This document shows positions 1-14,741 of a DNA stretch of 64,000 nucleotides, piece by piece. The notes under the pieces were generated by a model. It worked only from the letters and a program-made list of their open reading frames with translations, was not told the DNA's origin and ran no database searches. How positions within the stretch are numbered: position 1 is the first letter of the stretch; every line of letters starts with the position of its first letter. The DNA comes from Treponema sp. GTDB taxonomy: Bacteria > Spirochaetota > Spirochaetia > Treponematales > Treponemataceae. The translations under genes and the position numbers were made by a program. The stretch lies in NCBI RefSeq assembly GCF_045641405.1, contig NZ_JAZUGX010000001.1, positions 41,233-105,232 of the forward strand, given 5' to 3'.

Positions 1-3000
1 CATCGACAGCCTTGATGTAAACCGGAATTGTCCAAATGTTGTTTGCGTTTACAGTTCCATATGTTGCATTTGCATAAGTATCAAAAGCAGGACATGAATT
101 TGCACCGTTTTCACCATTGAAACTGAAACTCCATTTATCCTTCAAAATAGATTTATCCTGCCATACAGAAACTGCAGGTGTGCCTTTTTTCAAGCTTGCA
201 AGTTCAGCATCTGTCTTAGTTGTTTCAGATACCATTGGAATATAATAAGTAAGGCTTGCAAGTCCTGAACGGCCTGTACTCATATCGCTTGCATCACCGG
301 AAACTTCAAAGTGTCCAGTTTTTTCATCAGTTGCAAGAGGAGTTACATTCTTAATTTCTGGGGCACTATTATCTACGTTGAATGAATAGCTTCCGTTACC
401 TTTAAGACCAGACTTATCATAAACATTGACAGTAACGGAGATTTCTCCTGTCAGCCATTTATCAGCCAGAGTATTACTGTTAAGATCAAGCAAGCCTGTT
501 GTCCAGGTAGATTCTGTATTGTCATTTGTATCCATGACAAGGGAACCATTTGAACTGGAAGCATAACCTTCACTTTCTTTTCTTGCATCTGAAGGAACAT
601 TTCCTATCCAGTACTTTACCCCATGAGGAGTTTTTCCCTCTTCCGGATTTGCTTCAGCTGCTTCGAGAGTAAAGCCATCAATTTTATTTGCGTCCTTACC
701 AAGAATACGGAACTTAATGTATCTTCTGTTTACACCACCAACAATAAGAGTAGTTCCTATTGCATCTGTTGATACGGCAGCTGCATTTGCACCATTATTA
801 TCGTAGCTAACAATTTCTACACTTTTTACTTCAGGGCTTTCACAGTCACTGCCGTAAACAAGAGCGGCACCCGAATTCTCCAGCGATTCAGACTTGTGCT
901 GGAAATATGGTTTGAGGAGATTTCCATTGCTTGTATTTCCAGTATAGAAAATTCCGTCCTTATTATCGTTTACATAGAAGAATACAGATTTTGAACCGTC
1001 CTTTGTATCTGCCGGAGTATAGGTCCAGTCAGTTCCAGTAAGGGTTGTCGTTCCGTAGTCTTTGTTTGTCCATGTAATTTTGCTTCCATCTTTAGAATAT
1101 ACAAACTCTGCCGTAGCATTATCAGTAAATGTTGCGATGTATTTATTACCATTTGTTGGAATTACAACAGACTTGATCTGCTTTGAACTTCCAAGCAATA
1201 CTTTAACCACAGAATCTGTTTCAGCATCATCATCAGAAATCGTTCCGCTTATCTGTGCATTTGTACCGTACTTAAGTATATATGTATATGGATCTGCGCT
1301 TTCACCTGAACCATTACGGGTAAGATTTGTTACCTGGACTGTAGGACGGTCCCTGTTCATGTCTACTTCAAACTTTGTTGCATTCCATGAATAGGTTGGG
1401 TTATCTTCAGTTCCACCAATCTTATAGGCGCTTGAGTTTCCTGCCTTATCCTTGGCTACAGGAAGAACATAGACAACTCCAGTTCCTGCATTATTTTCTG
1501 CACTTTCCGCACCAGAAGCTGTATTGAAGTTAAAACCATCAATCTTCCAGCTGTAAATCTTTGCAATGTCGGTTTCTGTTGTTGCAGTAAATCTCGTCCA
1601 TCCGTAAGTAGTAAGATCCTTTGAAGTATCGTCGTAGATTTCCTTAGCCTTGTTTGCTGGCAATGCTCCCTTTGCATAGTACAGGTCAAAGCCTGCAAGA
1701 CTGAAGTTTTCTGTTACCGAACCTTCAATGGATTCAGAAGAACCGTTCACACCAACAGTATTTGAACGAATCGTTACAACAGGAGCCTCTTTATCAACAG
1801 TGAACATAAGCACACTTGGATTCTGGAATTTTGTTCCCGCAACATCAGTACATTCTGCTACAAGAGTTCCACTAGTTGCTTTAGCGGCAGCGATTTCAGT
1901 TTTCCATCCAGTGATTCTTGTCTTATCCGCAATTGCAGAGTATGCAACGTAACTTGCACCCTTTGCTACAGACCATGAATCAAGTTCACCTTCATTTGTT
2001 GTAAATGTTGTTACACATACAAGGTCGTTATCACCAAGAGTATAATCAAGGGCATTTCCACTGCTAAGGACACCGATACCACTCTGAAGATCCTTGAGAG
2101 TTCCATAAAGAGTTACGGATTGTTTTCCGTTTATTGTAACTGTACCTGTTGCAGAAGAACTTGTTACACCACCGTCTACTGACACAAAATTAGCCTTATA
2201 TTCCGGTGATGTTTCATCCATTCTTACAATGACGGTCTTCTTGTCCGACGAATTGCCGCAAGAATCAGTAGCCCAAAGCTGAAGTTTATTGGAAGCTCCC
2301 TTTTCATAACCACTTATTGTTCCCTTGAACTTATAGTAACCAAGATTGGTATCCTTATCGACAAGAATATATGTTGCAACAATATCACCAGTTATAGGAG
2401 CTGGAGCTGGCTTGCCAGATTCATAGTGAGGTACAAGGCTATAATTTACCTGAGTAATACCAGAATCTTTGTCATAGAAATAGCCTTCAATGGAAATATC
2501 TTTTCCCTTATACCATGTAGCGGCCGCATAAAGCCCCTGAGCCATATGAATGTTATAATCTGTAAGGTTTGAATAACCATTCTGTCCAAATGCAATATCA
2601 TCCTTAATCTTTGGAGCTGTATCATCAATGATATATGTAATTTTAGCACTTGCACTCTGTCCAAAAATATCAGTAACAGTATATTCAATATCCATTGAGT
2701 CTCCAGAATTTAGTCTAGAGAGTGGTTGAATTGTTGATGTAAACTGGCCATCACCAGACTGATTTGGAGTCAGAGAATAGCCCGCAGAATTTGTAATCTG
2801 TTTGCCACCAACTTCCTTATCTCTTTCATCAGATCCATATGTACGAATGACATTTCTGATAAGTGTTGTTGTATCATGACTGTAGTTACCAACAAGACCA
2901 ACTACATTAAGTTCAGCTTTATTCTCATCAGAATCCTTGTAGCTTCTTGTATACCCCTTATTCTCTGGAGCAGACATGGAGATTGTAGGAGCACCCTTTG

Positions 3001-6000
3001 AAACACCTACATAATAACTATTGCTCTTGAACTTATTGTATGGAGTATCACTGTCATTTCTGTAGTTTGTATCTTCAACTTCAAAATAAATCTCATATTT
3101 TCCTTCCTGAGATGGAAGAATCTGACTAAGATTTACACTTGTAGAAGATCCGTTTGAAATGATAGAGAATGGTCCGCTAAAACTTTTCGAGAATGTTGCA
3201 GAACCAACTTTCTCTTCTTCAGTTTCTCCCACATCCTCGTAAGAAGAAGCAATCCTGTAATAACATACGGCATTTCTTATACCGTCATCATCAGAAATAG
3301 AGCCCATAAGCTTGTTGTTGCTTGAAACTCCAAAGAGGTTTCCATCAACACCACTTGAGATATCCTTTGCTCCATTTGCAAGAGCAACAAAGTTTGAAGG
3401 ATTGATTATTGGACGGTCTGATTCCTGATCGGCATAATAACAAACATTTGTCTGTGCTCCTGTCTGGGCCTTAAGGAATTCACTTGATGTAGTCCTACTT
3501 GTATTGCCTGCGACGTCTGTTACTTCAATGACAACAAAAATATTATCCTTGGTCGTGTTGTCTTTTTCTGTTATCTTGGTTGTATCAATGGAAATTTCCC
3601 ATCCATTGACATTGGAAACAGCTGTAAAGTCACCTTTATTTATATGAGACTGATCCTGTGTCTTGTAACGAACTCCAGACATAACGGAAGTTCCAGTTGC
3701 GGAAGAGCCTTTATATACCTTATATTCAACACGTTCGATTTCATTGTTATCACTGGACTTTCCAGTAACAGTGATATTGCCATTTACATTATAGACAATC
3801 GAAGGTGATGTTCCTGTTATTACAACAGGTGTAATTGCTGTAATGTCGATTTTAGGATCTTCATCGTCAATGTAATATGTAAGCTTAGCTGTTGAAGACT
3901 GGCCTACTGTATTTGTCGCAGTGTAATTGACAGTTTTTTCCGTTTCAGTACCTGCAAGTGCAAGTGCTTCAAAAGCATCTGTAAATGCCCCTGAATGGCC
4001 TGAAGTTATGCTTCCCCTGTTTAAGGTAATATAGTTATCCCAGGAAGTAGCCGTACCCTTTACATTTACAATATCCTTTGGATCTGCATCTGACCTGAAA
4101 TATCGTTTTCCTTCAGAAGTTACGCTTATAGAAGGTGCATTTGAAGAAACTGCAAATTTAATTTTATCAGAAACATTCTTAACTGCTGTTTCTTTCCCCT
4201 CTTCCTTATCGATTGCGGTGATTTCAACATAATAGAAACCGTCTGATTCAGGAACCGGAACAGAGCCCTGATATGTCGTTGATTCTATGTTATGCCTGCT
4301 TATAGTATCGCCAACCTGAGTTGTCTTATCGGCAGCATAGAATTTAATATCTACAGCATCAATCATGTCATCATCAGTGACACTGAACATAAGGTTGTTG
4401 TTGCTTGCAGAGAAAAGGTTTCCGCTTGTAGTATTTATTACTATGTATTCATAAACAGGATTACCATTATTTTTCTTACCTGTAACCTCACTACCTTTTT
4501 CTGGGGGCTGTCCCTCAGGACAGTGAATGTCATTCCTATCTCCAGAAACGGCAGCTTCTGCGGTACTGAAGAATTTACCTGCTGCAGCCTGATCATCTGT
4601 TGCATATGCTGTAGCCTTATTGAAATTCATTGTTTTGATTACAGGTTTATCTGTTTCCTGATCAACAATAAAGTTCCTTAAAACATAAGCAACGTTCTGG
4701 GCGCTGTCTGTAGCTTTAAGTAAAATGGCAAAAGATTTTCTTGTTTTTCCGGTAGCAACTTTAGTTGTATCAACCTTAAAAGTTTTGCCAAATTTACTAT
4801 CATCTGTGAATACATTGTTTACACTAAGAGCAGAAACTTCAGTACCACCAGTGACAGTACCATTTACGGCATTTACTGAAATATTTGTCGTGTCATTTTC
4901 TGCTGCATAGCAAATGTATTCAACTTTTGTAAGTTCATAGTTGTCGCTTGCATTAAAGGTTACAGAAACATTTCCATTTACATAAGGCAATGCAGGATTG
5001 TCTTTATCTTCAACTGTCGGTGTAACAGCCGTAATAGATATTGAAGGTGCCTGGTTATCAACAACATAACTGAATTTTTCTGATTCACTCTGACCAAATT
5101 TGTCCACAAGAGTATACGAAACAGTAACAGTTTCTTTTGCCTCATTTGAATTAACAGTTATTGTATCAGTAAAAGTTGCTTCTCCATCCTTATTGTCTGA
5201 ATGTGCAGGAACTTCTATTTCCTCTTTAGTAGTTCCATCAGCTTTTGTAAGAGTTACCTTTGCTTTTGAAACGGAAGAATTCGTAAGCTTTCCATTTACT
5301 GTTATTACTGCACCTTTTTTATAAGAATTATTATCTGGAGTAAATGAAATCTTTGGCGCACCCTTTGAAACAGCAATTTTATAATTTTCTCTGATATAGC
5401 TGTTAGGTGTATCCGCATCAGATATCCATGAGGAATCCTTTGCATATATTGTAACCTCATGCTCACCTTCGCCAAGAGAGCTTACATCAACCGCACCTCC
5501 AGAAACAGGAAGAGCTTTTAAGACAGGGGAACCCACATATGCTGTAATATCAGATACCTTTCCATCATCGTCCTCTACATTGAATTTCATCTTGTTGTTG
5601 CTTGAAATACCAAAAAGATTTTTACCTGCTTCAATGTTAGAATAATCAGCGACCTTCTCAAAGTTGGTAGGCTTAATTTTTGGCTTGTCCGAAACCTGAT
5701 CTACAATGATATCTTCACCATCTGGTCTTCCTAGAGTTTTATTGTAGTCTGTGGATGTTGTAAATCCAACATTTCCCTTTCCTTCAGTCTTACTTGCACT
5801 GTCCTCTGCAGTTACCCTTACAATGAATTCCTTTGCCTCCGAAGGATCTGTATTGTTTACAATTCCAGTAGATGGATCTCTTGTATCATATTCATCTGTA
5901 AAGCTGAAGGTCTTTCCGAGGTTAACTGTTTTCTTTACTTCGCTTGTAGCCTTATCTATATATTCAATTTTTACGGATTTAAGGTTTGTTTCTTCTACAT

Positions 6001-8143
6001 TGCCTTTTACCTTGATAATGCCATTTACATATGATTTGCCATCCGCAGCATAGTCATTGATGACAGGAGTTATGGATGTGATTGTGACTACAGGCTTGAT
6101 TGCATCAACATGAACCGTAGAATTTACTGTAGTCTGAGAATTTCCAGTCTCATGAACAAGGAAATCCACAGAGTAAAGATAGGCCTTGTCTTTCTCACAT
6201 TTTACAGCATCATAGCCTTCACATTCTGCTGGAGAGAATTCCCAGGTATAGGAGCCTATAGTTCCAGTTTCCGAAATTCCCTTGCCGCTTCCAATTTCAA
6301 GTTTTTTCTTAATTTCGCCCTTCAACTCATTTGTCGATTCATCAGTTACAGTCACAGTTGCCATGATATAGTCAATCTGGCTGTCTCCATTCTTTGCAGT
6401 TCCCTTGAAAGTAAGACCATCGTTATCGTCAGTTTTCTTTGCAGAAGTCTTTACCAGTGAAAGATTCGATGGAGAAGTTACATGGATCTCTGGAAGCTTA
6501 CCTGTTCCTGTCGCGGTGAAACCGTAGTACTTTGCCTGTCCAAATTCAAGGCCGTCAAGATCATAACCTGTAAGTGCGATTATATACTTATGGTTTACCT
6601 TAAGGAAATTTCCAGCTGCTTCACTCATTCCAAAAGGAACTGTAAGAAGAGTTCCGGATGAGGAGCCACTTTCTGTATTATCCTTTACGCACCAGACATC
6701 ATGCTGACCTGGTGTTTCAAGTGCATTTATTACATCAGTCTTGAAATTAGCATTTGTATAGCTTGCATCATAGGCAGGATTGTTTTCTTCCATCTTCAGT
6801 CGTTTTTCAGCGACCACCCTGTTCAGAGCATCAATAAATTTCTTAGCATCGTCTTCTGTGTAAGGATCAGGTTCCGCTTTGTCTGACGCACTTGTCATAT
6901 CCTTTACCCAGACATGAATTGTTTTTGGCAATATGCCAGTGTTGTTCAAACCCGCGGAAACTGTCGCCGTTACATTGGATGAGCTTGCAAGCTGATTTGT
7001 CGTAAAATCGTTTTTACCATTGAAAATTTCAAGACCGCTCAATACATAGGTAGGATTTGCCGCTGGGTTAAGTGTAAATGAAAGGCGGTTGTCAACTGTA
7101 TCGAAATCTGAAGTATCCACCGCTTTTTCCTTAAGGGTAGCCATCGCCAAATCATTATTCGGCACACTACCATTGGAAATATTCATGAGGTTTGTTGCAG
7201 AAAGCCCAAGACCTTTAGAAGAACTCAAATAAGCAGAATAAACGTCATCATAAAGATAGACTTCACTTGTTGTGTTACCTTCTCCAGTTCCACTGTCCCC
7301 AGGATTTTTATATTCTTTGGCAGCGTCAGTAAGCCTTACTGTACACTTATATGATTTTGTTTCAGTTTTATTTTCTACTGTTCCATAGAGGTGAACATAA
7401 CGCTGATAGGCTACAGGTTCCGAGCCGGATGCACTTCTTGTAGTATTTGCAAAATCAACGCTTGTTCCACCAGCTGTAGCAACAGATGTTTCATATATGT
7501 TTTCTGCAAGATTTGAGCTTGTTGAACTTGTAAGGAGCACATTAGTCTTTCCATCATAAACATCAAGAGCCATCTTTGATATTTCATGAAGGTCGGCGAT
7601 TGTTCCTGTAACGGTGAAATTTGAACCGTAAGCAGCAGGATCCACACCATTTGCAACAGTAACACCAGGCTTTGAGATGATAAAGAAAGGAGCCGTATTA
7701 TCAACATCTACAGAGCGTGATGAAACTCCGGAGGTTTTTCCGCTGTTATCGTTTGCCCAGGCGGTGATTTCATATGTTCCGTCCGGGTATTGCCATCCGT
7801 TGGTGGCGGCATATGCATTTTCATCGTAATTGTTAAGGTCGATCCTCCAGCTTGTGCCAGCAACCGCGGCAGTTCCCTTGTAGACTTCCCTGCCAGTGCT
7901 TGTATTTACGACACGCACATTTACATTGGTGATCATTACATCATCCTTACATTCTCCAGCAAGGACAAAGCTGTCTCTGATCACAGCCCCAGAAGGAGGA
8001 TAGCTGATTGTAAGGGTTGGTGCTGAAACATCGACTGCTTCACCAAGACCAATGTCACACGAGAGGGTTGATGCCAAAGGAATAATAATTGCAGCTGCAA
8101 AAACTACCTTGGACCAAAGAGATTTAAAAACATTTTTGTGCAT
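1..8143 (-). CDS. Giant spirochaetal lipoprotein with many bacterial Ig-like repeats (>2714 aa; 3' end lies beyond the left window edge); not in the ORF track
   Basis: ATG at 8143 preceded by GAGGAG. It translates MHKNVFKSLWSKVVFAAAIIIPLASTLS-CDIGLGEAVDVSAPTLTISYP (signal peptide plus lipobox Cys). The same frame was checked at 6109, 5062, 3871, 2629 and at the edge (..NIWTIPVYIKAVD), with no stop found. Recurrent DxxGN / VDxxxP Ig-like linkers. Confidence 0.9.
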   Translation of the reverse strand, partial: MHKNVFKSLWSKVVFAAAIIIPLASTLSCDIGLGEAVDVSAPTLTISYPPSGAVIRDSFVLAGECKDDVMITNVNVRVVNTSTGREVYKGTAAVAGTSWRIDLNNYDENAYAATNGWQYPDGTYEITAWANDNSGKTSGVSSRSVDVDNTAPFFIISKPGVTVANGVDPAAYGSNFTVTGTIADLHEISKMALDVYDGKTNVLLTSSTSSNLAENIYETSVATAGGTSVDFANTTRSASGSEPVAYQRYVHLYGTVENKTETKSYKCTVRLTDAAKEYKNPGDSGTGEGNTTSEVYLYDDVYSAYLSSSKGLGLSATNLMNISNGSVPNNDLAMATLKEKAVDTSDFDTVDNRLSFTLNPAANPTYVLSGLEIFNGKNDFTTNQLASSSNVTATVSAGLNNTGILPKTIHVWVKDMTSASDKAEPDPYTEDDAKKFIDALNRVVAEKRLKMEENNPAYDASYTNANFKTDVINALETPGQHDVWCVKDNTESGSSSGTLLTVPFGMSEAAGNFLKVNHKYIIALTGYDLDGLEFGQAKYYGFTATGTGKLPEIHVTSPSNLSLVKTSAKKTDDNDGLTFKGTAKNGDSQIDYIMATVTVTDESTNELKGEIKKKLEIGSGKGISETGTIGSYTWEFSPAECEGYDAVKCEKDKAYLYSVDFLVHETGNSQTTVNSTVHVDAIKPVVTITSITPVINDYAADGKSYVNGIIKVKGNVEETNLKSVKIEYIDKATSEVKKTVNLGKTFSFTDEYDTRDPSTGIVNNTDPSEAKEFIVRVTAEDSASKTEGKGNVGFTTSTDYNKTLGRPDGEDIIVDQVSDKPKIKPTNFEKVADYSNIEAGKNLFGISSNNKMKFNVEDDDGKVSDITAYVGSPVLKALPVSGGAVDVSSLGEGEHEVTIYAKDSSWISDADTPNSYIRENYKIAVSKGAPKISFTPDNNSYKKGAVITVNGKLTNSSVSKAKVTLTKADGTTKEEIEVPAHSDNKDGEATFTDTITVNSNEAKETVTVSYTLVDKFGQSESEKFSYVVDNQAPSISITAVTPTVEDKDNPALPYVNGNVSVTFNASDNYELTKVEYICYAAENDTTNISVNAVNGTVTGGTEVSALSVNNVFTDDSKFGKTFKVDTTKVATGKTRKSFAILLKATDSAQNVAYVLRNFIVDQETDKPVIKTMNFNKATAYATDDQAAAGKFFSTAEAAVSGDRNDIHCPEGQPPEKGSEVTGKKNNGNPVYEYIVINTTSGNLFSASNNNLMFSVTDDDMIDAVDIKFYAADKTTQVGDTISRHNIESTTYQGSVPVPESDGFYYVEITAIDKEEGKETAVKNVSDKIKFAVSSNAPSISVTSEGKRYFRSDADPKDIVNVKGTATSWDNYITLNRGSITSGHSGAFTDAFEALALAGTETEKTVNYTATNTVGQSSTAKLTYYIDDEDPKIDITAITPVVITGTSPSIVYNVNGNITVTGKSSDNNEIERVEYKVYKGSSATGTSVMSGVRYKTQDQSHINKGDFTAVSNVNGWEISIDTTKITEKDNTTKDNIFVVIEVTDVAGNTSRTTSSEFLKAQTGAQTNVCYYADQESDRPIINPSNFVALANGAKDISSGVDGNLFGVSSNNKLMGSISDDDGIRNAVCYYRIASSYEDVGETEEEKVGSATFSKSFSGPFSIISNGSSTSVNLSQILPSQEGKYEIYFEVEDTNYRNDSDTPYNKFKSNSYYVGVSKGAPTISMSAPENKGYTRSYKDSDENKAELNVVGLVGNYSHDTTTLIRNVIRTYGSDERDKEVGGKQITNSAGYSLTPNQSGDGQFTSTIQPLSRLNSGDSMDIEYTVTDIFGQSASAKITYIIDDTAPKIKDDIAFGQNGYSNLTDYNIHMAQGLYAAATWYKGKDISIEGYFYDKDSGITQVNYSLVPHYESGKPAPAPITGDIVATYILVDKDTNLGYYKFKGTISGYEKGASNKLQLWATDSCGNSSDKKTVIVRMDETSPEYKANFVSVDGGVTSSSATGTVTINGKQSVTLYGTLKDLQSGIGVLSSGNALDYTLGDNDLVCVTTFTTNEGELDSWSVAKGASYVAYSAIADKTRITGWKTEIAAAKATSGTLVAECTDVAGTKFQNPSVLMFTVDKEAPVVTIRSNTVGVNGSSESIEGSVTENFSLAGFDLYYAKGALPANKAKEIYDDTSKDLTTYGWTRFTATTETDIAKIYSWKIDGFNFNTASGAESAENNAGTGVVYVLPVAKDKAGNSSAYKIGGTEDNPTYSWNATKFEVDMNRDRPTVQVTNLTRNGSGESADPYTYILKYGTNAQISGTISDDDAETDSVVKVLLGSSKQIKSVVIPTNGNKYIATFTDNATAEFVYSKDGSKITWTNKDYGTTTLTGTDWTYTPADTKDGSKSVFFYVNDNKDGIFYTGNTSNGNLLKPYFQHKSESLENSGAALVYGSDCESPEVKSVEIVSYDNNGANAAAVSTDAIGTTLIVGGVNRRYIKFRILGKDANKIDGFTLEAAEANPEEGKTPHGVKYWIGNVPSDARKESEGYASSSNGSLVMDTNDNTESTWTTGLLDLNSNTLADKWLTGEISVTVNVYDKSGLKGNGSYSFNVDNSAPEIKNVTPLATDEKTGHFEVSGDASDMSTGRSGLASLTYYIPMVSETTKTDAELASLKKGTPAVSVWQDKSILKDKWSFSFNGENGANSCPAFDTYANATYGTVNANNIWTIPVYIKAVD
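2630..6109 (-). repeat. Three degenerate protein-level super-repeats (349, 397, 414 aa), each about three Ig-like domains, inside the giant lipoprotein
   Basis: Units start VDAIKP (6109), VDNQAP (5062) and IDDEDP (3871). Each contains, in order, TP..(Y)VNG, DQx(S/T)DxP..NF, NLFxxSxNN..DDD, VS(K/S)(G/N)AP and GQS. Confidence 0.8.
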
Positions 8144-8184
8144 ATGTGGCTCCTCAACATAACAAACTGACAAAATTCTCATTT

Positions 8185-8210
8185 CTTTATCGGAATAAAT
8201 TCCAATAAAG
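8185..8210 (-). promoter_or_regulatory. Near-perfect inverted repeat in the predicted 5' leader of the giant lipoprotein gene
   Basis: CTTTATCGGAAT-AA-ATTCCAATAAAG: 12-bp arms with one mismatch, which is a G.U pair in the minus-strand RNA. Confidence 0.45.
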
Positions 8211-8272
8211 CAAAGCATTTTTTTCCATTTGGTAGAGAAAGTGCATATTTTAGAGAAAATGGAGATATTTAT

Positions 8273-8302
8273 AGTATAATTCTTTTTCTACTCGTCTGGC
8301 AA
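8273..8302 (-). promoter_or_regulatory. Sigma70-type promoter of the giant lipoprotein gene
   Basis: Minus strand TTGCCA (8302-8297) - 18 nt - TATACT (8278-8273), directly after the T-tract of the upstream terminator. Confidence 0.6.
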
Positions 8303-8303
8303 G

Positions 8304-8336
8304 AAAAAAAAGACCGCTCGGATTTACCGAACGGTC
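8304..8336 (-). terminator. Intrinsic terminator of the 2120-aa Ig-like protein gene
   Basis: Minus strand GACCGTTCGG-TAAAT-CCGAGCGGTC followed by T8, about 40 nt after the stop codon. Confidence 0.85.
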
Positions 8337-8378
8337 CTCAAATTCCTTTAGCTATGTGCCAAGCTGTTTCAGTTCAAC

Positions 8379-11300
8379 TTAGAAGAGTGTTGTTCTCGCA
8401 CCAATGCTGAATGTGAATACATACTTCTTGGCATCATCACCGCCAACATCGGATGGGATGAACCAAACCTGTGGTTCTACATATGTAGACCAGGTCCTGA
8501 AGTACTTTGCCTTCTCAATCGTTACGCGAGGGAATTCAAACTGCATGAGAGCGGCAGAAAGAACCTGTGCGACCTTTTCACCCGTTGTTGCGGATGCACC
8601 AGAGTCGGTGAAGTAAGAGAAGTTGGCACCGATGGAAACTGTTGCAGTAAGCCAGTCCCAGTCACGTCCCCAGAAGTATCTGAATGGTATGTAGGCAAGC
8701 TGAGCGATGATCTTACCGCTGAATACATTGCCACCAAAGCGCATACCTGTCAGTCCCTTTCCGAACATCTTGGAAATGCTGTCACGCTGTTCCTGAGTAA
8801 ACTGTCCAAAGCTTGCCTGAACCTTTACGGCACCGTCAAATGCTGTAAGACCAACACCTACATTCCAGAGTGTAGCACCCCAGACAGAGGCGTCAAAGTA
8901 AAGTCCCTGGATGAACTTTGGTACCTCATAAGATGCCTTGTCACCCTTACGCAATGTAAGAGTTACATCGTTAAGGTCGATATCATCACCAGAAAGTCCA
9001 CTGAACAGGAGCTGCTGGTTGTATCTTCCGCTTTCACCTGGAGAAATCAATGTTACGGATGGGTTGGTTCTATCAACCTGAACTACAGTTCTTGTGATAG
9101 CCTTGTCACCGTTGTACATTTCTGCCTTAACGAGCATGAAGTGGAATCCTGCAGGGATATCAAGGTTTTCTACCCTGTATTCCCAGTGTGTCTTTCCTTC
9201 CTTTGCAACAGGTTCGTAAGTCTTACCGTTGTCAAAGCTGATGTAGATTCTCTTTACCTTTCTGTTTTCAAGTTCACGGCGGCGGTCAGAAGGAATGGTC
9301 TTGTCCTTCATCTCAAGCTTTTCTTCTTCTGTAAGAATGTAGCCTGCATTACCTTCAAGCAATGGTCTGTTTCTTGCAAAGTCACCGTATGTGAACGTCT
9401 CAAGTGTTACCCATGGACCTGTTGCACTGTATACAAACGACTGCTCATTTGAAAGTACACGTTTACCGTTCTTTGTTACGGCAATTGTCTGGAATGAATG
9501 AACTCCATCCTTGAGCTCGTATTCTTCGCCAGCTGGATATGCAACGACATTTCCGTTTGCATCCTTTTCTTCAATAAGCTTTGGAGTAATTGTGTGGTTA
9601 AGAGTGAACTTGAAGTATCCACTCTTTGTTACTTCTGCGCTGCCAAGTTCTTCCATCTTGCGGCGGTCGATGTAAAGGTCAACATGGTCGATAGGATCAT
9701 CTTTTTCTGAGTATGTACTACCATAGATGTTGAACTGTCCATGACAGTGTTCACCGTTAAGTGGATAGAGAACGTCAACCTTAGAAAGAGGCTTTGTCTT
9801 GTCTACTTCAATGTTGCGGCTGACACGAGTGATGTTGCCTGCGGCATCTGTACCTGTAAGCTCGATGTTGTAGAATCCATTGTTGAGCTCAGAAATATCG
9901 ATGACCTGAGTGATGATCTCATCTGGAACAAGAACTCTCTTTGCAAGGCGGTCTGGGATTGTCTTTCCTTCAAGACTGCGGATTGTAAGGAAGAGGCTTG
10001 TAAGCTCGATGTTATCAGTTGTCTGACCAGACATGAAGATCCTTCTTGAAACCTTTGAATCGTCAAGTGGCAGCTCAAGTCTTAGGTTTGGAGCAGTATT
10101 ATCGATGTTGATCAAAGATGAATAGAGAGCTCCGATTCCATACTTATCGTAGATGCGGATGAATACAACATGGGTTCCATCCTGAACAACAGCTGTGTTG
10201 AATGTGTATGACCAGTCTGTAGTTCCCTTTGCATCGTTGAATGTCGCACCGTTGTCCACGGAAATCTGAACAAGACCGATGTCGTTCTTATCGCTTGCCC
10301 AACCCTTGAGTGTAACAGTTCCCTTTACCGTCTTTTCGATTTCAGGAGAAGTCATTCCACCCTTTGGTTCCTCGAGGGATACGCGGAATGTACGCTTGAT
10401 TTCGTCACCCTTTACTCCGTTTACATCGATTGCATATGCAGTGATCACATGCTCGTTGTCCTTGAGTGAAAGGAGTGGAATGTCAAACTTATAGCTTGAA
10501 GAATATTCGCTGCCATCTTCCGTGATGTACTGCTTGTATTCATCGTTGTCGATCTTGTAGAAGATCTTACACTTGCCATCATCATCGTAAACTACACCGG
10601 AAATTGTGAAGTCTGTCGTAACAACCTGCATTTCTTCTGGAAGGTGGATTTCTGTGACAGGCTTATCGCTCTTTTCATCTACCTTGAAGTCCCACTTGTT
10701 GATTACGGTTTCGTTTCCGTTGTCGTCTGTGAATGTGAATGACATGTTGTTGTCGATAGGAGCATCAAATGTTCCTACCCTCATGTTTGGAAGCTGGAAG
10801 TTCATTGTTCTGAGAGGATCGTATCTCTCCGATGAATCAACTTCATTTCCATCAGCATCCTTGTCCTTCTTTACAGGCACATCGCTTGCGTGGACGAAGA
10901 TCTCATATGGGAGCTTTGTTCTTCCGCTTGCACTTGTGTACATGATCTTGTTTGTTCTGCCAGCATCCTTAACGGAGAATACAATTGTATTTTCGCCGTT
11001 AACTACAGATCCTTCTTCTGGAAGAATGACCTTTACCTCTGGAGGAGTTACATCCTTGTGAAGGACACTGTTCACATATGTCGTCTTTCCGACAGTATCA
11101 GTTACACGGAATGAGAATGGAACATATCCATCAGGAATTTCCTTGAGGGAAACATTTACCCAGAATTCACCTGCCTTTGTGAAAGCTACGTTCTTCCAGG
11201 CTGCCTTTCCAGATTCCCTGACAGTTCCGTCCTTTTCCTTGATATCCTGTTTTTCATCTGTGATTGCGTATTCAATCTTTGCGATTCCATTGCCGTCGCT

Positions 11301-14300
11301 AGCAGTACCAGAGATGATGAATGAATCCTTTACGAACGACATCACCTTAGGACTGTTCATGTTTACAGTTGGCTTTGCTGTATCTACGACAAGGTTGACA
11401 TCAGGAGCAAGATATGAACCACCATCTTCACCGTTTACGCGAACGCTTACACCGCGGAAAGTTCCGTCAGTAGTCGCAGTAAGCTTGATGATGTTGCCTT
11501 CTGAAGAAACCTTAAGACCTGGTGTCTCACCGCGGACTCTTGCCGTAACTGGACCTGGAACATTGCAGTATCCTACCAAAGCTGAACCGTCGTTGAGGAC
11601 ATAGGCCTTGAGGCTATCGTCGTAGCGTGTCTTTCCTTCACACTGCCAGTAGATAGCAGGCTGGTTGTCAATATTTTCATGCTGGCGGATTACATTGAAT
11701 GTACCCTTTGCAACGACTGTCTTTCCTCTTGCTTCTGCAGAAACCGCAATGTTCGTTATGCGTGCAGGAAGATTGGAAAGTGGAATTGTAGCCGAGTATA
11801 CATTTTCAAATGTCTCAGGATCCGAAGAAATAAGATTGAGTGGTGCGGAACCAGACTGTTTTGAAAGTCCGCCTGGAGCATCAACACCGTCGATTGTGTA
11901 TGAAACAGATTTGATTACGCTGTTGCTCTTTACCGTAACAGAGACTGCATGGCTTTCATCCTTTGGTGCGCCCCTGCCGAGAAGAACATTCATACCGCTC
12001 TTGTATGTTTCGTTGTCAATGTTTGAAAGCTCAACATCAATCCTGCTTTCTGCCTGAACATTGAGCGGTGATGAAGAAATCTTTACAGGCTTTGGAGTAT
12101 CCTGTGTATTTGCAGTAAATACGATTGCAGGCTCGTCTGCACGGAGATTTTCCTTGCGGACATACTTGAATGCATTGTCCAATGATCCCTGATATACACA
12201 TACACCGTAGTTGTCGCGTCCAGAAAGCCAGTACATCTTAGGAGCTGCCTTTACAACCTTCTTCTTTCCATCCATTACATCTTCTTCTGGAGCGTATGGA
12301 ATCTTGCGGATAAACACTGCCTGTGCAGAATCCTGACCATCTGCTGTCTCTGCTACGATTTCAACGACAGCAACTCCTTCCGCAAATGAATTGAAATTAA
12401 GGTTTGTAATCGACCATGTTCCTCTTCTTGAAACATCGATTGTCGACCAGTCTGTATCTTCTGCACGTTCTGAACCTACGAGAAGAACATCGTTGAACAT
12501 ATTTGCCTTTACTGAAAGGATTCTGTAGCGAACCTTTGCAGAAGGAACTGTAACCTTACCAGAAATGCTGAGCTTTGTATCAGGTGTCTCGAATTCAAAA
12601 GGAATGCCACGGTCTGCGTTGTATGCCTCTGTGTCGTCGAGGGAAAGAACAAGCTTTTCAAGTGGAGCTACAAACTTGAGTGCCCTTGATGTATACACGG
12701 CTCCAGAAGCGTCCGTCACCTGTACCTTGAATTCAGTTGAATCAGTTTCAGAAGAAAGAGTGATTACATTTCCCTTGAAAGAAACATCAACACCTCTCTG
12801 GGCTGGGCTGAGGGCAACAGAAGAAATCTTTCCGCCAGCAAAGTAACCTGTGAGAGGTTTGTCCTTAAGTGCGATCACTGCACCATCTTCCGTTATCTTT
12901 GAATCTGTAAAATAGACACCAGGTGTGTCTGTCCATATCTTTGTAAGGTCACGGATATTTACTATTGAATTGAATACTGTTGGACGGCCGTAGATGTCTG
13001 TTGCTGTAACTTCAATCTTTGCAACGCCCCATGGAAGAGCATCGCCTGAAAGTGGAACGGATACGGCTACGTTCTTTTCTCCGCCCTTAAGTCCTGCATC
13101 GCCTTCAATGAGTCCGTTCTTTCCCCAAGTAAGTCTATACTTTGCAGAAGAAAGTCCGCATGTTGAAGAAACTGGAACTTCATATGTTCCGTCTGCTTCT
13201 GGATTTACAGTAAGTCCATTGACGAAATCAACCGATGATCCGCCTGCCTTGTAGACTGGCTGCCCAAACACAGGAGCAACACCCTTGGACTTGAATGTGC
13301 TTGTCGTAACGTTACCCTTGACTCCGTACTTGTCAGTTCCATAAACAGAGATTGTATGGTTTCCGTCTGCAAATGTGCCTTCCACTGGGGCATAGAATAC
13401 ACCGATGCAGTCGATTGTCTTTTCTTCGCCATTATCAACCTTGTAAGTAACGCTTACAGGACCATCATCATCTGTAACGATACCACGGAGGAAAAGAGCA
13501 CCCTCCTCGCCTTCGAATTCAACACCGTTTGATGGATATCCGATGGTAACAACAGGTTTGTCATCTTCCTGGTTAAGTGCAATCGTATGCTTTACGACAA
13601 CAGTGTTTCCCATCGTATCTGTACCAGTCACTGTAAACACTTCAGATTTCTGCTTTCCGATGGAGTTTACTTCCTTTACCCAGTATGGGTTTCCTGGAGT
13701 AAGCTCAAACTCGCCTGTCTCCTGTCCCCACTGCCATGTAAGCTTCTGGATACCGTTGATATCCTTTGCATAACCCGCGATCGTGAACACACCGTTCTTT
13801 ACTTCATCCTTTGCAGGAGAAATGATCCTGATGTCTGGATTTGTGTTGTCAATGAAATAAAGGAATGCATAGTTTCCTACAGAACCAGCGTTGTCCCTGG
13901 CACGGAACCAACAAGTCGCAACACCGTCTGGGAAGTCCTTTGTGTTTACGGATATATTGAACTTGAATTCACTTATAAGTCCGTCTTCCGTTCTTTCCTT
14001 ATATTTTTCTTCCTTGATCGATGCAAAGCTATAATACTTTCCACCATCGAGGGAATATTCAAGAGTATTGATACCGTTACCGTCTTTGATTGTTCCCGAA
14101 AGATCAATCCTGCCTGAAACAAGCTGTCCCATCGTAAGGTTTGTAACTTCAATTACAGGGGCACGGCGGTCAAGCTGCCAGGTTACCTTTGTGCGGTTTC
14201 CTTTCTTTGGAATTACACGGGTTGTATCTATCTTTCCGTTTTCATCCTTGTATGCATCAGGATTACCGTTATCAATACCGTATACTTCGATTGTATGAGG

Positions 14301-14741
14301 TCCTTCAAAAAGTTTTGTAGTATCAAGGAAGTAGGACCAGAATTCTGTACCTTGAGCCTTTACAGGATTCTCTTCGTCACCGTCAAGGATGAGCCATACT
14401 TCTGTAACCTTATCATCATCAACACAGGTTCCGACGATGTTGAGGTTACCTGGAACGCGCATGTTCTCTACAGGATTCGTGATGCCACTGACTGGGAGGT
14501 CTGACTTTGGATCAATGTAGATGTTGAACGGTCCAGCGATAGTCTTATTGCCTGCCTTGTCTTCCGCAGTAACAAGAACATTGTACTTTCCCGCTTCATG
14601 TTCGGTTTCCTGATTGATGTCGAACTTTTCCTGCCAGCTGTTTTCAGATCCAACAGAGCGAGAAGTAATCTTCTTTGCTGCAAACAAAGAAACAGGCAAC
14701 AGCGATACTGCTACCAGGAATGCCAGTACTTTTTTTTGCAT
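8379..14741 (-). CDS. Large secreted Ig-like-repeat protein (2120 aa) with a C-terminal outer-membrane beta-barrel-like domain
   Basis: Signal peptide MQKKVLAFLVAVSLLPVSLFA. Many DxxGN..DxxxP Ig-like units. The last ~180 aa are amphipathic, aromatic-rich strands ending FTFSIGARTTLF (terminal Phe). Confidence 0.85.
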   Translation of the reverse strand: MQKKVLAFLVAVSLLPVSLFAAKKITSRSVGSENSWQEKFDINQETEHEAGKYNVLVTAEDKAGNKTIAGPFNIYIDPKSDLPVSGITNPVENMRVPGNLNIVGTCVDDDKVTEVWLILDGDEENPVKAQGTEFWSYFLDTTKLFEGPHTIEVYGIDNGNPDAYKDENGKIDTTRVIPKKGNRTKVTWQLDRRAPVIEVTNLTMGQLVSGRIDLSGTIKDGNGINTLEYSLDGGKYYSFASIKEEKYKERTEDGLISEFKFNISVNTKDFPDGVATCWFRARDNAGSVGNYAFLYFIDNTNPDIRIISPAKDEVKNGVFTIAGYAKDINGIQKLTWQWGQETGEFELTPGNPYWVKEVNSIGKQKSEVFTVTGTDTMGNTVVVKHTIALNQEDDKPVVTIGYPSNGVEFEGEEGALFLRGIVTDDDGPVSVTYKVDNGEEKTIDCIGVFYAPVEGTFADGNHTISVYGTDKYGVKGNVTTSTFKSKGVAPVFGQPVYKAGGSSVDFVNGLTVNPEADGTYEVPVSSTCGLSSAKYRLTWGKNGLIEGDAGLKGGEKNVAVSVPLSGDALPWGVAKIEVTATDIYGRPTVFNSIVNIRDLTKIWTDTPGVYFTDSKITEDGAVIALKDKPLTGYFAGGKISSVALSPAQRGVDVSFKGNVITLSSETDSTEFKVQVTDASGAVYTSRALKFVAPLEKLVLSLDDTEAYNADRGIPFEFETPDTKLSISGKVTVPSAKVRYRILSVKANMFNDVLLVGSERAEDTDWSTIDVSRRGTWSITNLNFNSFAEGVAVVEIVAETADGQDSAQAVFIRKIPYAPEEDVMDGKKKVVKAAPKMYWLSGRDNYGVCVYQGSLDNAFKYVRKENLRADEPAIVFTANTQDTPKPVKISSSPLNVQAESRIDVELSNIDNETYKSGMNVLLGRGAPKDESHAVSVTVKSNSVIKSVSYTIDGVDAPGGLSKQSGSAPLNLISSDPETFENVYSATIPLSNLPARITNIAVSAEARGKTVVAKGTFNVIRQHENIDNQPAIYWQCEGKTRYDDSLKAYVLNDGSALVGYCNVPGPVTARVRGETPGLKVSSEGNIIKLTATTDGTFRGVSVRVNGEDGGSYLAPDVNLVVDTAKPTVNMNSPKVMSFVKDSFIISGTASDGNGIAKIEYAITDEKQDIKEKDGTVRESGKAAWKNVAFTKAGEFWVNVSLKEIPDGYVPFSFRVTDTVGKTTYVNSVLHKDVTPPEVKVILPEEGSVVNGENTIVFSVKDAGRTNKIMYTSASGRTKLPYEIFVHASDVPVKKDKDADGNEVDSSERYDPLRTMNFQLPNMRVGTFDAPIDNNMSFTFTDDNGNETVINKWDFKVDEKSDKPVTEIHLPEEMQVVTTDFTISGVVYDDDGKCKIFYKIDNDEYKQYITEDGSEYSSSYKFDIPLLSLKDNEHVITAYAIDVNGVKGDEIKRTFRVSLEEPKGGMTSPEIEKTVKGTVTLKGWASDKNDIGLVQISVDNGATFNDAKGTTDWSYTFNTAVVQDGTHVVFIRIYDKYGIGALYSSLINIDNTAPNLRLELPLDDSKVSRRIFMSGQTTDNIELTSLFLTIRSLEGKTIPDRLAKRVLVPDEIITQVIDISELNNGFYNIELTGTDAAGNITRVSRNIEVDKTKPLSKVDVLYPLNGEHCHGQFNIYGSTYSEKDDPIDHVDLYIDRRKMEELGSAEVTKSGYFKFTLNHTITPKLIEEKDANGNVVAYPAGEEYELKDGVHSFQTIAVTKNGKRVLSNEQSFVYSATGPWVTLETFTYGDFARNRPLLEGNAGYILTEEEKLEMKDKTIPSDRRRELENRKVKRIYISFDNGKTYEPVAKEGKTHWEYRVENLDIPAGFHFMLVKAEMYNGDKAITRTVVQVDRTNPSVTLISPGESGRYNQQLLFSGLSGDDIDLNDVTLTLRKGDKASYEVPKFIQGLYFDASVWGATLWNVGVGLTAFDGAVKVQASFGQFTQEQRDSISKMFGKGLTGMRFGGNVFSGKIIAQLAYIPFRYFWGRDWDWLTATVSIGANFSYFTDSGASATTGEKVAQVLSAALMQFEFPRVTIEKAKYFRTWSTYVEPQVWFIPSDVGGDDAKKYVFTFSIGARTTLF

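Follow-up and report, generated by a model that had tools for sequence, protein, structure and literature searches.

The window, by which we mean the whole 64,000-nucleotide stretch of the Treponema sp. genome that was analysed (assembly GCF_045641405.1, contig NZ_JAZUGX010000001.1, here C1:41233-105232), carries in its first 8.1 kb the 5' part of a minus-strand gene that encodes a giant lipoprotein of 4,487 residues (P0003). We consider it likely that this protein forms a lipid-anchored stalk of immunoglobulin-like (Ig-like) domains with a beta-propeller head, and that the head can be switched by inversion of a DNA segment that lies beyond the window edge. The proposed mechanism runs as follows: i) Cys29 would anchor the 4,487-residue protein of this gut or rumen Treponema through a lipid; ii) a stalk of at least 15 Big_7-like modules would carry a head of some 660 residues; iii) an invertase would invert a 4.8-kb segment between two 25-nucleotide repeats; and iv) the inversion would fuse the stalk in frame to a second head (B) and silence the first (A). 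The gene, its lipoprotein signal and the Ig chain, when taken alone, are in our judgement real beyond reasonable doubt.

The proposed inversion locus at the 3' end of the giant gene

The preliminary description of the window had read its first 8.1 kb as one continuous minus-strand gene, still open at base 1, whose product should be larger than the visible part. Both points were borne out. The listing of open reading frames (ORFs) with open ends for window positions 1-8300 gives a single long minus-strand frame (2..8218, open at base 1), and translation from the ATG at 8143 (-) yields 2,714 residues with zero in-frame stops down to base 1. On the genome contig the frame extends 5,320 nucleotides past the edge of the window and ends with a stop codon at C1:35912-35914; the entire gene occupies C1:35912-49375 (-). 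A search of the same genome with the C-terminal 1,198 residues of the protein recovered another copy of its terminal ~660 residues, which is located on the opposite strand, about 830 bp past the stop of the gene, and is 41% identical. The following features were assigned to this locus (L002, C1:29500-49400):

C1:32457-33107 = L002 2958-3608, plus strand: gene of a 216-aa serine invertase (P0124)
C1:33126-33150 = L002 3627-3651, plus strand: second inverted-repeat arm
C1:33127-35085 = L002 3628-5586, plus strand: silent head cassette B, 652 open codons after an in-frame TAA
L002 5602-5636, plus strand: terminator-like hairpin after cassette B
L002 6306-6281, minus strand: terminator-like hairpin after cassette A
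C1:35912-37915, minus strand: expressed head cassette A, residues 3821-4487 and stop codon
C1:37892-37916 = L002 8393-8417, minus strand: inverted-repeat arm in the giant gene, codons T3821-S3828

Read along the plus strand the order is: invertase, 18-nucleotide spacer, repeat, cassette B, hairpin, a spacer of ~0.8 kb, hairpin, the stop of the giant gene (6413), cassette A and repeat arm. Both hairpins lie inside the segment between the repeats, one per cassette.

The 25-nucleotide repeat, AACCAAGGTTACAACCAGCTTAAGT, has arms that are complementary at 24 of the 25 positions and a core of the form AACC-AA-GGTT (core sequence AACCAAGGTT), which we take to resemble the hix/gix core. At the junction the constant region of the giant gene reads …GTTCCGTATGT-AACCAAGGTT… and the cassette B side …AGTGGACTTACTCG. 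The repeat sits at the exact 5' edge of the homology between the two cassettes, which are 37-41% identical in protein and 54% identical in DNA overall, and both of its copies encode TKVTTSLS in the cassette frame (T3821-KVTTSLS in the gene). In the silent copy the same repeat codons follow an in-frame TAA (…F*TKVTTSLSGLTRQEAKKSMFDRTALGHYP…), so that cassette B, which shares the reading frame of the repeat, lacks its own start. When L002 3627-8417 was inverted in silico, an uninterrupted ORF of 4,472 aa resulted, which equals P0003 through residue 3828 and consists of cassette B from there on, while cassette A became stop-preceded in its turn.

The product of the adjoining recombinase gene, P0124, matches the Pfam family Resolvase (E 5e-32) and, over residues 1-201 against positions 1-200 of 203, the NCBIfam model of the Mpi master DNA invertase (NF009949, E 6e-74); its closest solved relative is Mu Gin (4m6f, E 6.5e-12). 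The motifs YLRVS9T and SRLGR and the C-terminal helix-turn-helix (…NTLYRYL) are intact. By these matches, and by a score below the equivalog cut-off of NF009949, we class P0124 as a predicted small serine invertase that is Mpi-like and not an Mpi equivalog. The gene is present as a single copy in the genome at E <= 1e-25, and the core AACCAAGGTT, with 15 occurrences in the 2.75 Mb genome, forms only one nearby inverted pair; for these two reasons the invertase looks dedicated to the head locus. No transposase or phage genes were found beside the invertase at the locus.

A different account of this layout would be that the downstream cassette is the decaying remnant of an inverted duplication, that the recombinase stems from an unrelated mobile element, and that the protein has one fixed head and undergoes no programmed switching. 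Decay at the locus is indeed visible in a relic of a cassette 3' end downstream of the stop of the giant gene. Yet cassette B is open throughout its length in DNA of 40% GC, the repeat lies in frame and precisely where the homology begins, the flip made in silico yields a perfect reading frame, and the invertase is flanked by genes of neither transposases nor phages. We regard this account as quite improbable; the comparative evidence that bears on it is given with the homologues.

Some further observations concern the surroundings of the cassettes. The relic just mentioned (…SMSDNIETAQMR*) is located at L002 6268-6357 (-), or C1:35767-35856, just downstream of the stop of the giant gene. At the locus of the closest homologue (L006, JAKSLX010000016.1) a 110-nucleotide stretch 3' of the stop shares 98% identity with the 3' end of cassette B, despite the giant proteins of the two loci being only 56% identical; at the level of sequence this suggests turnover of cassettes or their exchange between species. 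Close upstream of the invertase gene, at L002 1904-2848 (+) (C1:31403-32347), is a gene for a Peptidase_M15_4 protein (D-Ala-D-Ala carboxypeptidase-like, with signal peptide) that has no apparent link to the switch.

Anchor, stalk and head of the lipoprotein

The features that define the start of the gene and the part of the protein encoded in the window, in window coordinates, are:

8379..14741, minus strand: upstream gene of a 2,120-aa secreted protein with a signal peptide and six Pfam Big_7 stretches
8309..8339, minus strand: intrinsic-terminator-like hairpin with T-run at the end of the upstream 2,120-aa gene
8273..8302, minus strand: promoter-like site TTGCCA-18-TATACT upstream of the giant gene (consensus match only)
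8150..8155, minus strand: Shine-Dalgarno sequence GAGGAG, 6 nucleotides ahead of the ATG at 8143-8141
1..8143, minus strand: 5' part of the giant gene, codons 1-2714 of 4,487 (8,143 nucleotides), from ORF and translation
8057..8143, minus strand: lipoprotein signal peptide, residues 1-29, with K-rich n-region, hydrophobic core and lipobox TLS-C (codon of Cys29 at 8057-8059)
7760..8020, minus strand: first Ig-like domain, residues 42-128, Pfam Big_7
2606..6166, minus strand: three-fold super-repeat of ~390 aa, residues ~660-1846, with several Big_7-like beta-sandwich modules per copy

The start context at 8155-8141 (-), GAGGAG-CCACAT-ATG, agrees with the strong Shine-Dalgarno sequence that had been noticed before. 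An alternative ATG at 8218, which would give the longest ORF, has no Shine-Dalgarno site and its 25 extra residues are missing in the homologues; ATG 8143 was chosen because the N-termini of the homologues (MHKNVFKSLWSKV... versus MKKGIFRSLWTKV...) align to it. This start and the lipobox Cys29 are conserved in more than 100 Treponema homologues. Given the terminator-like hairpin and the promoter-like site upstream, the giant gene is probably transcribed separately from the upstream gene, on a transcript of its own. The N-terminus, MHKNVFKSLWSK-VVFAAAIIIPLAS-TLS-C29, has the charged n-region, the hydrophobic h-region and the lipobox of a substrate of signal peptidase II, and it contains the sequence TLS-CDIGLGEAVD on which the preliminary description had based its spirochaetal lipoprotein signal. 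Both elements of that sequence are kept within the family: the lipobox Cys is invariant or nearly so across the homologues, most of which have [LVAF][STAG][SGA]C, and the motif C-x-x-GLG-x-x-VD-x-x-AP that follows the lipobox is found in essentially all full-length homologues.

Sequence comparison with known domains recovers little of the stalk. The sole Pfam match in the window part is Big_7 (PF17957, residues 42-128, 25.9 bits versus a cut-off of 24.1), and its score drops to a marginal 22.8 bits when the full 4,487-aa protein is scanned; Pfam and NCBIfam together gave nothing on the whole giant protein beyond this one marginal domain, and sequence searches of the PDB with the whole protein and with the C-terminus gave no meaningful match. 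The internal repeats were found by comparing 150-aa pieces of the protein with each other, which recovered the super-repeat (E down to 6e-17), the middle copy of which varies in number among the homologues; self-BLAST of the undivided protein returned the identity match only. A hidden Markov model (HMM) that was seeded on the Big_7 domain and taken through five iterations over the family recognised 15 Big_7-like modules in P0003, each ~110 aa long; the part encoded in the window accounts for 13.

Two parts of the protein were modelled with AlphaFold2, residues 28-1200 (with a family alignment of 19 rows) and residues 3290-4487. The model of the first part has a predicted local distance difference test score (pLDDT) of 73 and consists nearly entirely of strand, with a helical insert at ~430-475. 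The matches retrieved for it from the PDB by Foldseek (E 5e-18 to 1e-14) were a mastigoneme, the macroglobulin (MG) domains of bacterial alpha-2-macroglobulin, titin/MyBP-C and contactin, all of which are strings of Ig, MG or fibronectin type III (FN3) sandwiches; their template modelling (TM) scores are low because these are flexible multi-domain chains. Internal repeats, iterated HMM and AlphaFold2/Foldseek results support an Ig-like nature for the rest of the stalk as well. The long run of Ig-like modules that had been proposed for the window has in this way gained a predicted chain of beta-sandwiches over residues 28-1200, and the statement that the visible part contains no recognised catalytic domain still holds.

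The model of the C-terminal part (pLDDT 64, predicted TM score 0.60) contains blades with a pLDDT of 75-90. Foldseek matched the head to beta-propellers of the PDB, the top matches spanning E 1.5e-7 to 1e-5: a Micromonospora sialidase (E 1.5e-7), the PLL lectins of Photorhabdus (E 1e-6, target TM up to 0.63), KDNases, the fucose lectin AAL and enzymes of the glycoside hydrolase families GH32 and GH43. A viral structure library returned the same fold class. With moderate confidence, then, the last ~660 aa are predicted to comprise one small beta-sandwich and a lectin/sialidase-like beta-propeller.

Fold matches of this kind also allow the propeller to be read as an enzyme, a glycoside hydrolase or sialidase-like protein, in which case the two cassettes would give a glycosidase at the cell surface two different substrate specificities. 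Among the top folds there are indeed sialidases, KDNases and GH32/GH43 enzymes, and the propeller has Asp, His and Tyr positions that are invariant across the family. A motif search of cassettes A and B for the Asp-box (S-x-D-x-G-x-x-[WFY]) and for [FY]RIP, however, found none, including the strict forms S-x-D-x-G-x-x-W and FRIP; neither the ORF of cassette B (P0123) nor cassette A, scanned within the whole protein, matched any Pfam or NCBIfam family; and the PLL and AAL lectin propellers are equally good matches, with a higher target TM. We therefore consider an enzymatic head unlikely. The more specific identity of a GH33-type sialidase was dropped, as its signature motifs are missing and the fold alone matches. 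In the absence of Asp-box and FRIP motifs and of any Pfam/NCBIfam family, we prefer a lectin-like binding head over a canonical sialidase; as modelled, the head would be a lectin-like binding module, the ligand of which is probably a glycan.

Homologues and exchange of heads in the genus

A search of a collection of 5.8 billion proteins retrieved at least 194 relatives of 3,200-7,600 aa. Those that are named all belong to Treponema (T. saccharophilum, T. zioleckii and Treponema sp.) and are annotated merely as hypothetical, 'Ig-like domain-containing' or 'beta strand repeat-containing'. The relatives are collinear with P0003 over nearly the full length, save for the number of middle super-repeats and an insert at ~2800-2900, and sequence divergence in this otherwise collinear family is greatest in the head. 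The closest relative in the collection is 56% identical to P0003, and the collection holds no near-identical strain. Among 151 species genomes of the genus, the C-terminal module is present in 90 and often occurs in two or three tandem giant genes.

The layout of the locus was recovered a second time, on the contig JAZLGN010000006.1 of a Treponema metagenome-assembled genome (MAG), which was reached by collecting orphan C-terminal ORFs and reading their contigs. It contains a 216-aa resolvase, a silent cassette of 636 aa and a convergent giant gene of 5,061 aa, with a perfect 29-nucleotide repeat (TTGTTCCGTATATAACCAAGGTTGAAACG) at 9960-9988 and 14298-14326 that agrees with the repeat of the P0003 locus in its core and in the codons at which it lies (VPYITKV). 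The invertases of the two loci are 79% identical and their silent cassettes ~41%, other recombinases of the genus being at most 56% identical. A scan of 185,579 species genomes, from which the genome of the window had been left out, for an 18-nucleotide pattern found an inverted pair on JAZLGN010000006.1 only; the other hits were chance matches in unrelated taxa, and none of 22 metagenome hits of the loose pattern encodes a relative.

A related arrangement is present in the complete genome of the cultured species T. ruminis (CP031518.1), where a partial cassette of 918 aa is convergent with a giant gene of 5,263 aa and the segment of 5.2 kb lies between the arms of a perfect 411-nucleotide inverted repeat (L011 9788-10198 and 15421-15831). 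No serine recombinase adjoins this segment, PDDEXK_2 (Rpn-like) genes are found nearby, and the segment may flip by homologous recombination. At least three lineages (P0011-16, P0018/21 and the P0046-74 group) combine similar stalks with dissimilar heads: identity is 85-97% over the 500 residues that precede VVPY(V/I)T and only 25-47% in the heads. P0011-16, the lineage that was aligned in detail, has three types of head; their divergence begins exactly after DVVPYVTK(V/I)TTAL, identical ends of the stalk being followed by different heads. From the MAG layout, the T. ruminis pair and the head swaps in three lineages, we read the head as an exchangeable module across the family, to which a cognate invertase appears to be wired in at least two genomes.

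In many related species giant paralogues stand in tandem on the same strand, two or three at a time, in place of an invertible cassette (for example at G002:C2:642-654 kb, G071:C44, G066:C60, G145:C27 and G016:C76), which could be another means of maintaining several heads. Two further kinds of candidate were set aside. Contig ends near the 3' ends of many homologues had been considered as assembly breaks at invertible segments; the ends in L014-L023 contain one cassette only and lack the repeat core. Short orphan C-terminal ORFs (L009, L010, L012, L013), considered as silent cassettes, proved to be pieces of giant genes that were frameshifted or cut by the contig. On the metagenome contigs L009 (2556-12178) and L010 (1-11878) frameshifts or assembly errors break the giant gene up into two or three ORFs that overlap, and false orphan C-terminal proteins enter databases in this way.

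The 2,120-aa protein encoded upstream has a C-terminal part of ~200 aa that matches no family and ends in ...ARTTLF; a PDB search with the C-terminal region returned nothing. T. saccharophilum (AP025288.1) and two metagenome contigs have an orthologue of 2,052-2,122 aa beside the giant gene, which the loci of more distant homologues do not. The two proteins may be functional partners.

The same neighbour enters into another explanation, in which the giant protein is a structural lipoprotein of the periplasm or the inner leaflet, for example an envelope scaffold together with the 2,120-aa Big_7 protein, and variation of the head is a matter of partner matching. Many Treponema lipoproteins are subsurface, as is established for T. 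pallidum, and the Big_7 protein of 2,052-2,122 aa is encoded next to the giant gene in four loci, a conserved neighbourhood. On the other side, the head is where the collinear family diverges most, and its propeller fold matches secreted lectins and sialidases. A terminal module that varies in a programmed way is a hallmark of exposed tips that determine specificity, such as the tail fibres of Mu and the PilV protein of the shufflon (PMC9881135). Since arrangements in which a head is replaced by inversion are typical of such tips, an external tip that determines specificity is the more likely interpretation, and we give the periplasmic explanation a low probability. The putative role of adhesin or surface scaffold that the preliminary description had inferred for the protein is strengthened accordingly, by the propeller head and by its arrangement for replacement through DNA inversion, and the giant lipoprotein would be exposed at the surface.

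Several points weigh against a switchable, exposed head. The flipped orientation was not seen, scans for the exact constant-side junction in GTDB genomes and Joint Genome Institute (JGI) metagenomes being empty; among the matches listed for the 151 species genomes, the convergent cassette pair occurs only in the genome of P0003; and none of the other genus genomes searched has an invertase near a cassette on the same contig. P0124 scores 248 bits against NF009949, below the equivalog cut-off of 272 bits, the head model reaches only moderate confidence, and surface exposure of a Treponema lipoprotein is not readable from sequence. The empty junction scans and the rarity of the layout in the genus are also what would be expected if cassette B were a decaying remnant, and the genus genomes contain many scattered small serine recombinases (37-56% identity), often at contig ends. 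Against the remnant stands the MAG contig JAZLGN010000006.1, which keeps the invertase at 79% identity, the repeat at the same codons and the cassette, though the cassettes themselves have diverged to ~41%. We infer that the segment probably flips in the strain of P0003; the head swaps at the same junction in other lineages lend this indirect support.

Relation to known inversion systems

Commensal Treponema of gut and rumen are abundant and poorly understood, and their largest genes are annotated only as 'hypothetical'; we know of no giant Ig-repeat homologue the function of which has been studied. With the analysis given here the family gains an architecture of lipid anchor, Ig-like stalk and propeller head, and a swappable head would offer a testable handle on the attachment targets and the surface variation of Treponema. 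The 25-nucleotide repeat and the 216-aa invertase form a compact pair of recombinase and site, and thereby a candidate genetic tool. Surface variation through vlsE in Borrelia and tprK in T. pallidum proceeds by gene conversion; if the proposed switch is true, site-specific inversion would provide the spirochaete phylum with another route for varying a surface lipoprotein. More tentatively, and with a chance of being wrong that we put slightly higher than that of being right, the locus could represent the first invertase-driven head switching, as antigenic or adhesin variation, of a spirochaete surface protein. The conserved VVPY(V/I)TKV junction would then be a family-wide point of module exchange, at which a dedicated, co-inherited Mpi-like invertase of gut and rumen Treponema re-aims a stalk of ~4,500 residues at different glycan or cell targets, or lets it escape phage or antibody.

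Homologous giant Ig-repeat proteins (with Big_7, Big_13 and Big_3 domains) are found in T. zioleckii and T. saccharophilum. They are true homologues, 32-56% identical and collinear, with the same lipobox and N-terminal motif, and most relatives of this type are without invertase and silent cassette, many of them occurring as two or three tandem paralogues. Site-specific inversion within a coding sequence has been shown experimentally in the genus, for the epigenetic hsdS invertons of Treponema denticola, the only case in Treponema within the literature covered; the target there is the specificity subunit of a type I restriction-modification system and not a surface protein (PMC7672463). Gene-altering programmed inversions were surveyed by Milman, Yelin and Kishony 2023 (PMC9881135), who list HsdS, PilV, tail fibres, SusC/D and PglX among the target families; Treponema, spirochaetes and propeller heads do not appear in the main text of their survey. 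The locus described here is like these inversions in that part of the coding sequence is exchanged in a gene that determines specificity.

The closest parallels are the G segment of Mu (with Gin) and the C segment of P1 (with Cin). In both, as in Treponema, the gene of a small serine invertase adjoins the segment, the inverted repeats are short and one of them lies in the expressed gene, and a constant N-terminal part is combined with one of two convergent C-terminal cassettes; the best match of P0124 among solved structures is, moreover, Gin of Mu itself. The Treponema locus differs from the two phage systems in its target, which is a chromosomal 4,487-aa lipoprotein and not a phage fibre, in its invertase, which by NCBIfam is closer to the Mpi family of Bacteroides, and in having neither a prophage context nor a second gene (a chaperone of the U/U' type) in the segment. 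Three of the features that mark a system of the Mu G type were found, namely a recombinase beside the segment, inverted repeats in frame and a layout conserved in an independent genome. The switch therefore most likely belongs to the known class of the Mu G segment and is, within the literature covered, new for the giant lipoprotein family and for the surface proteins of spirochaetes.

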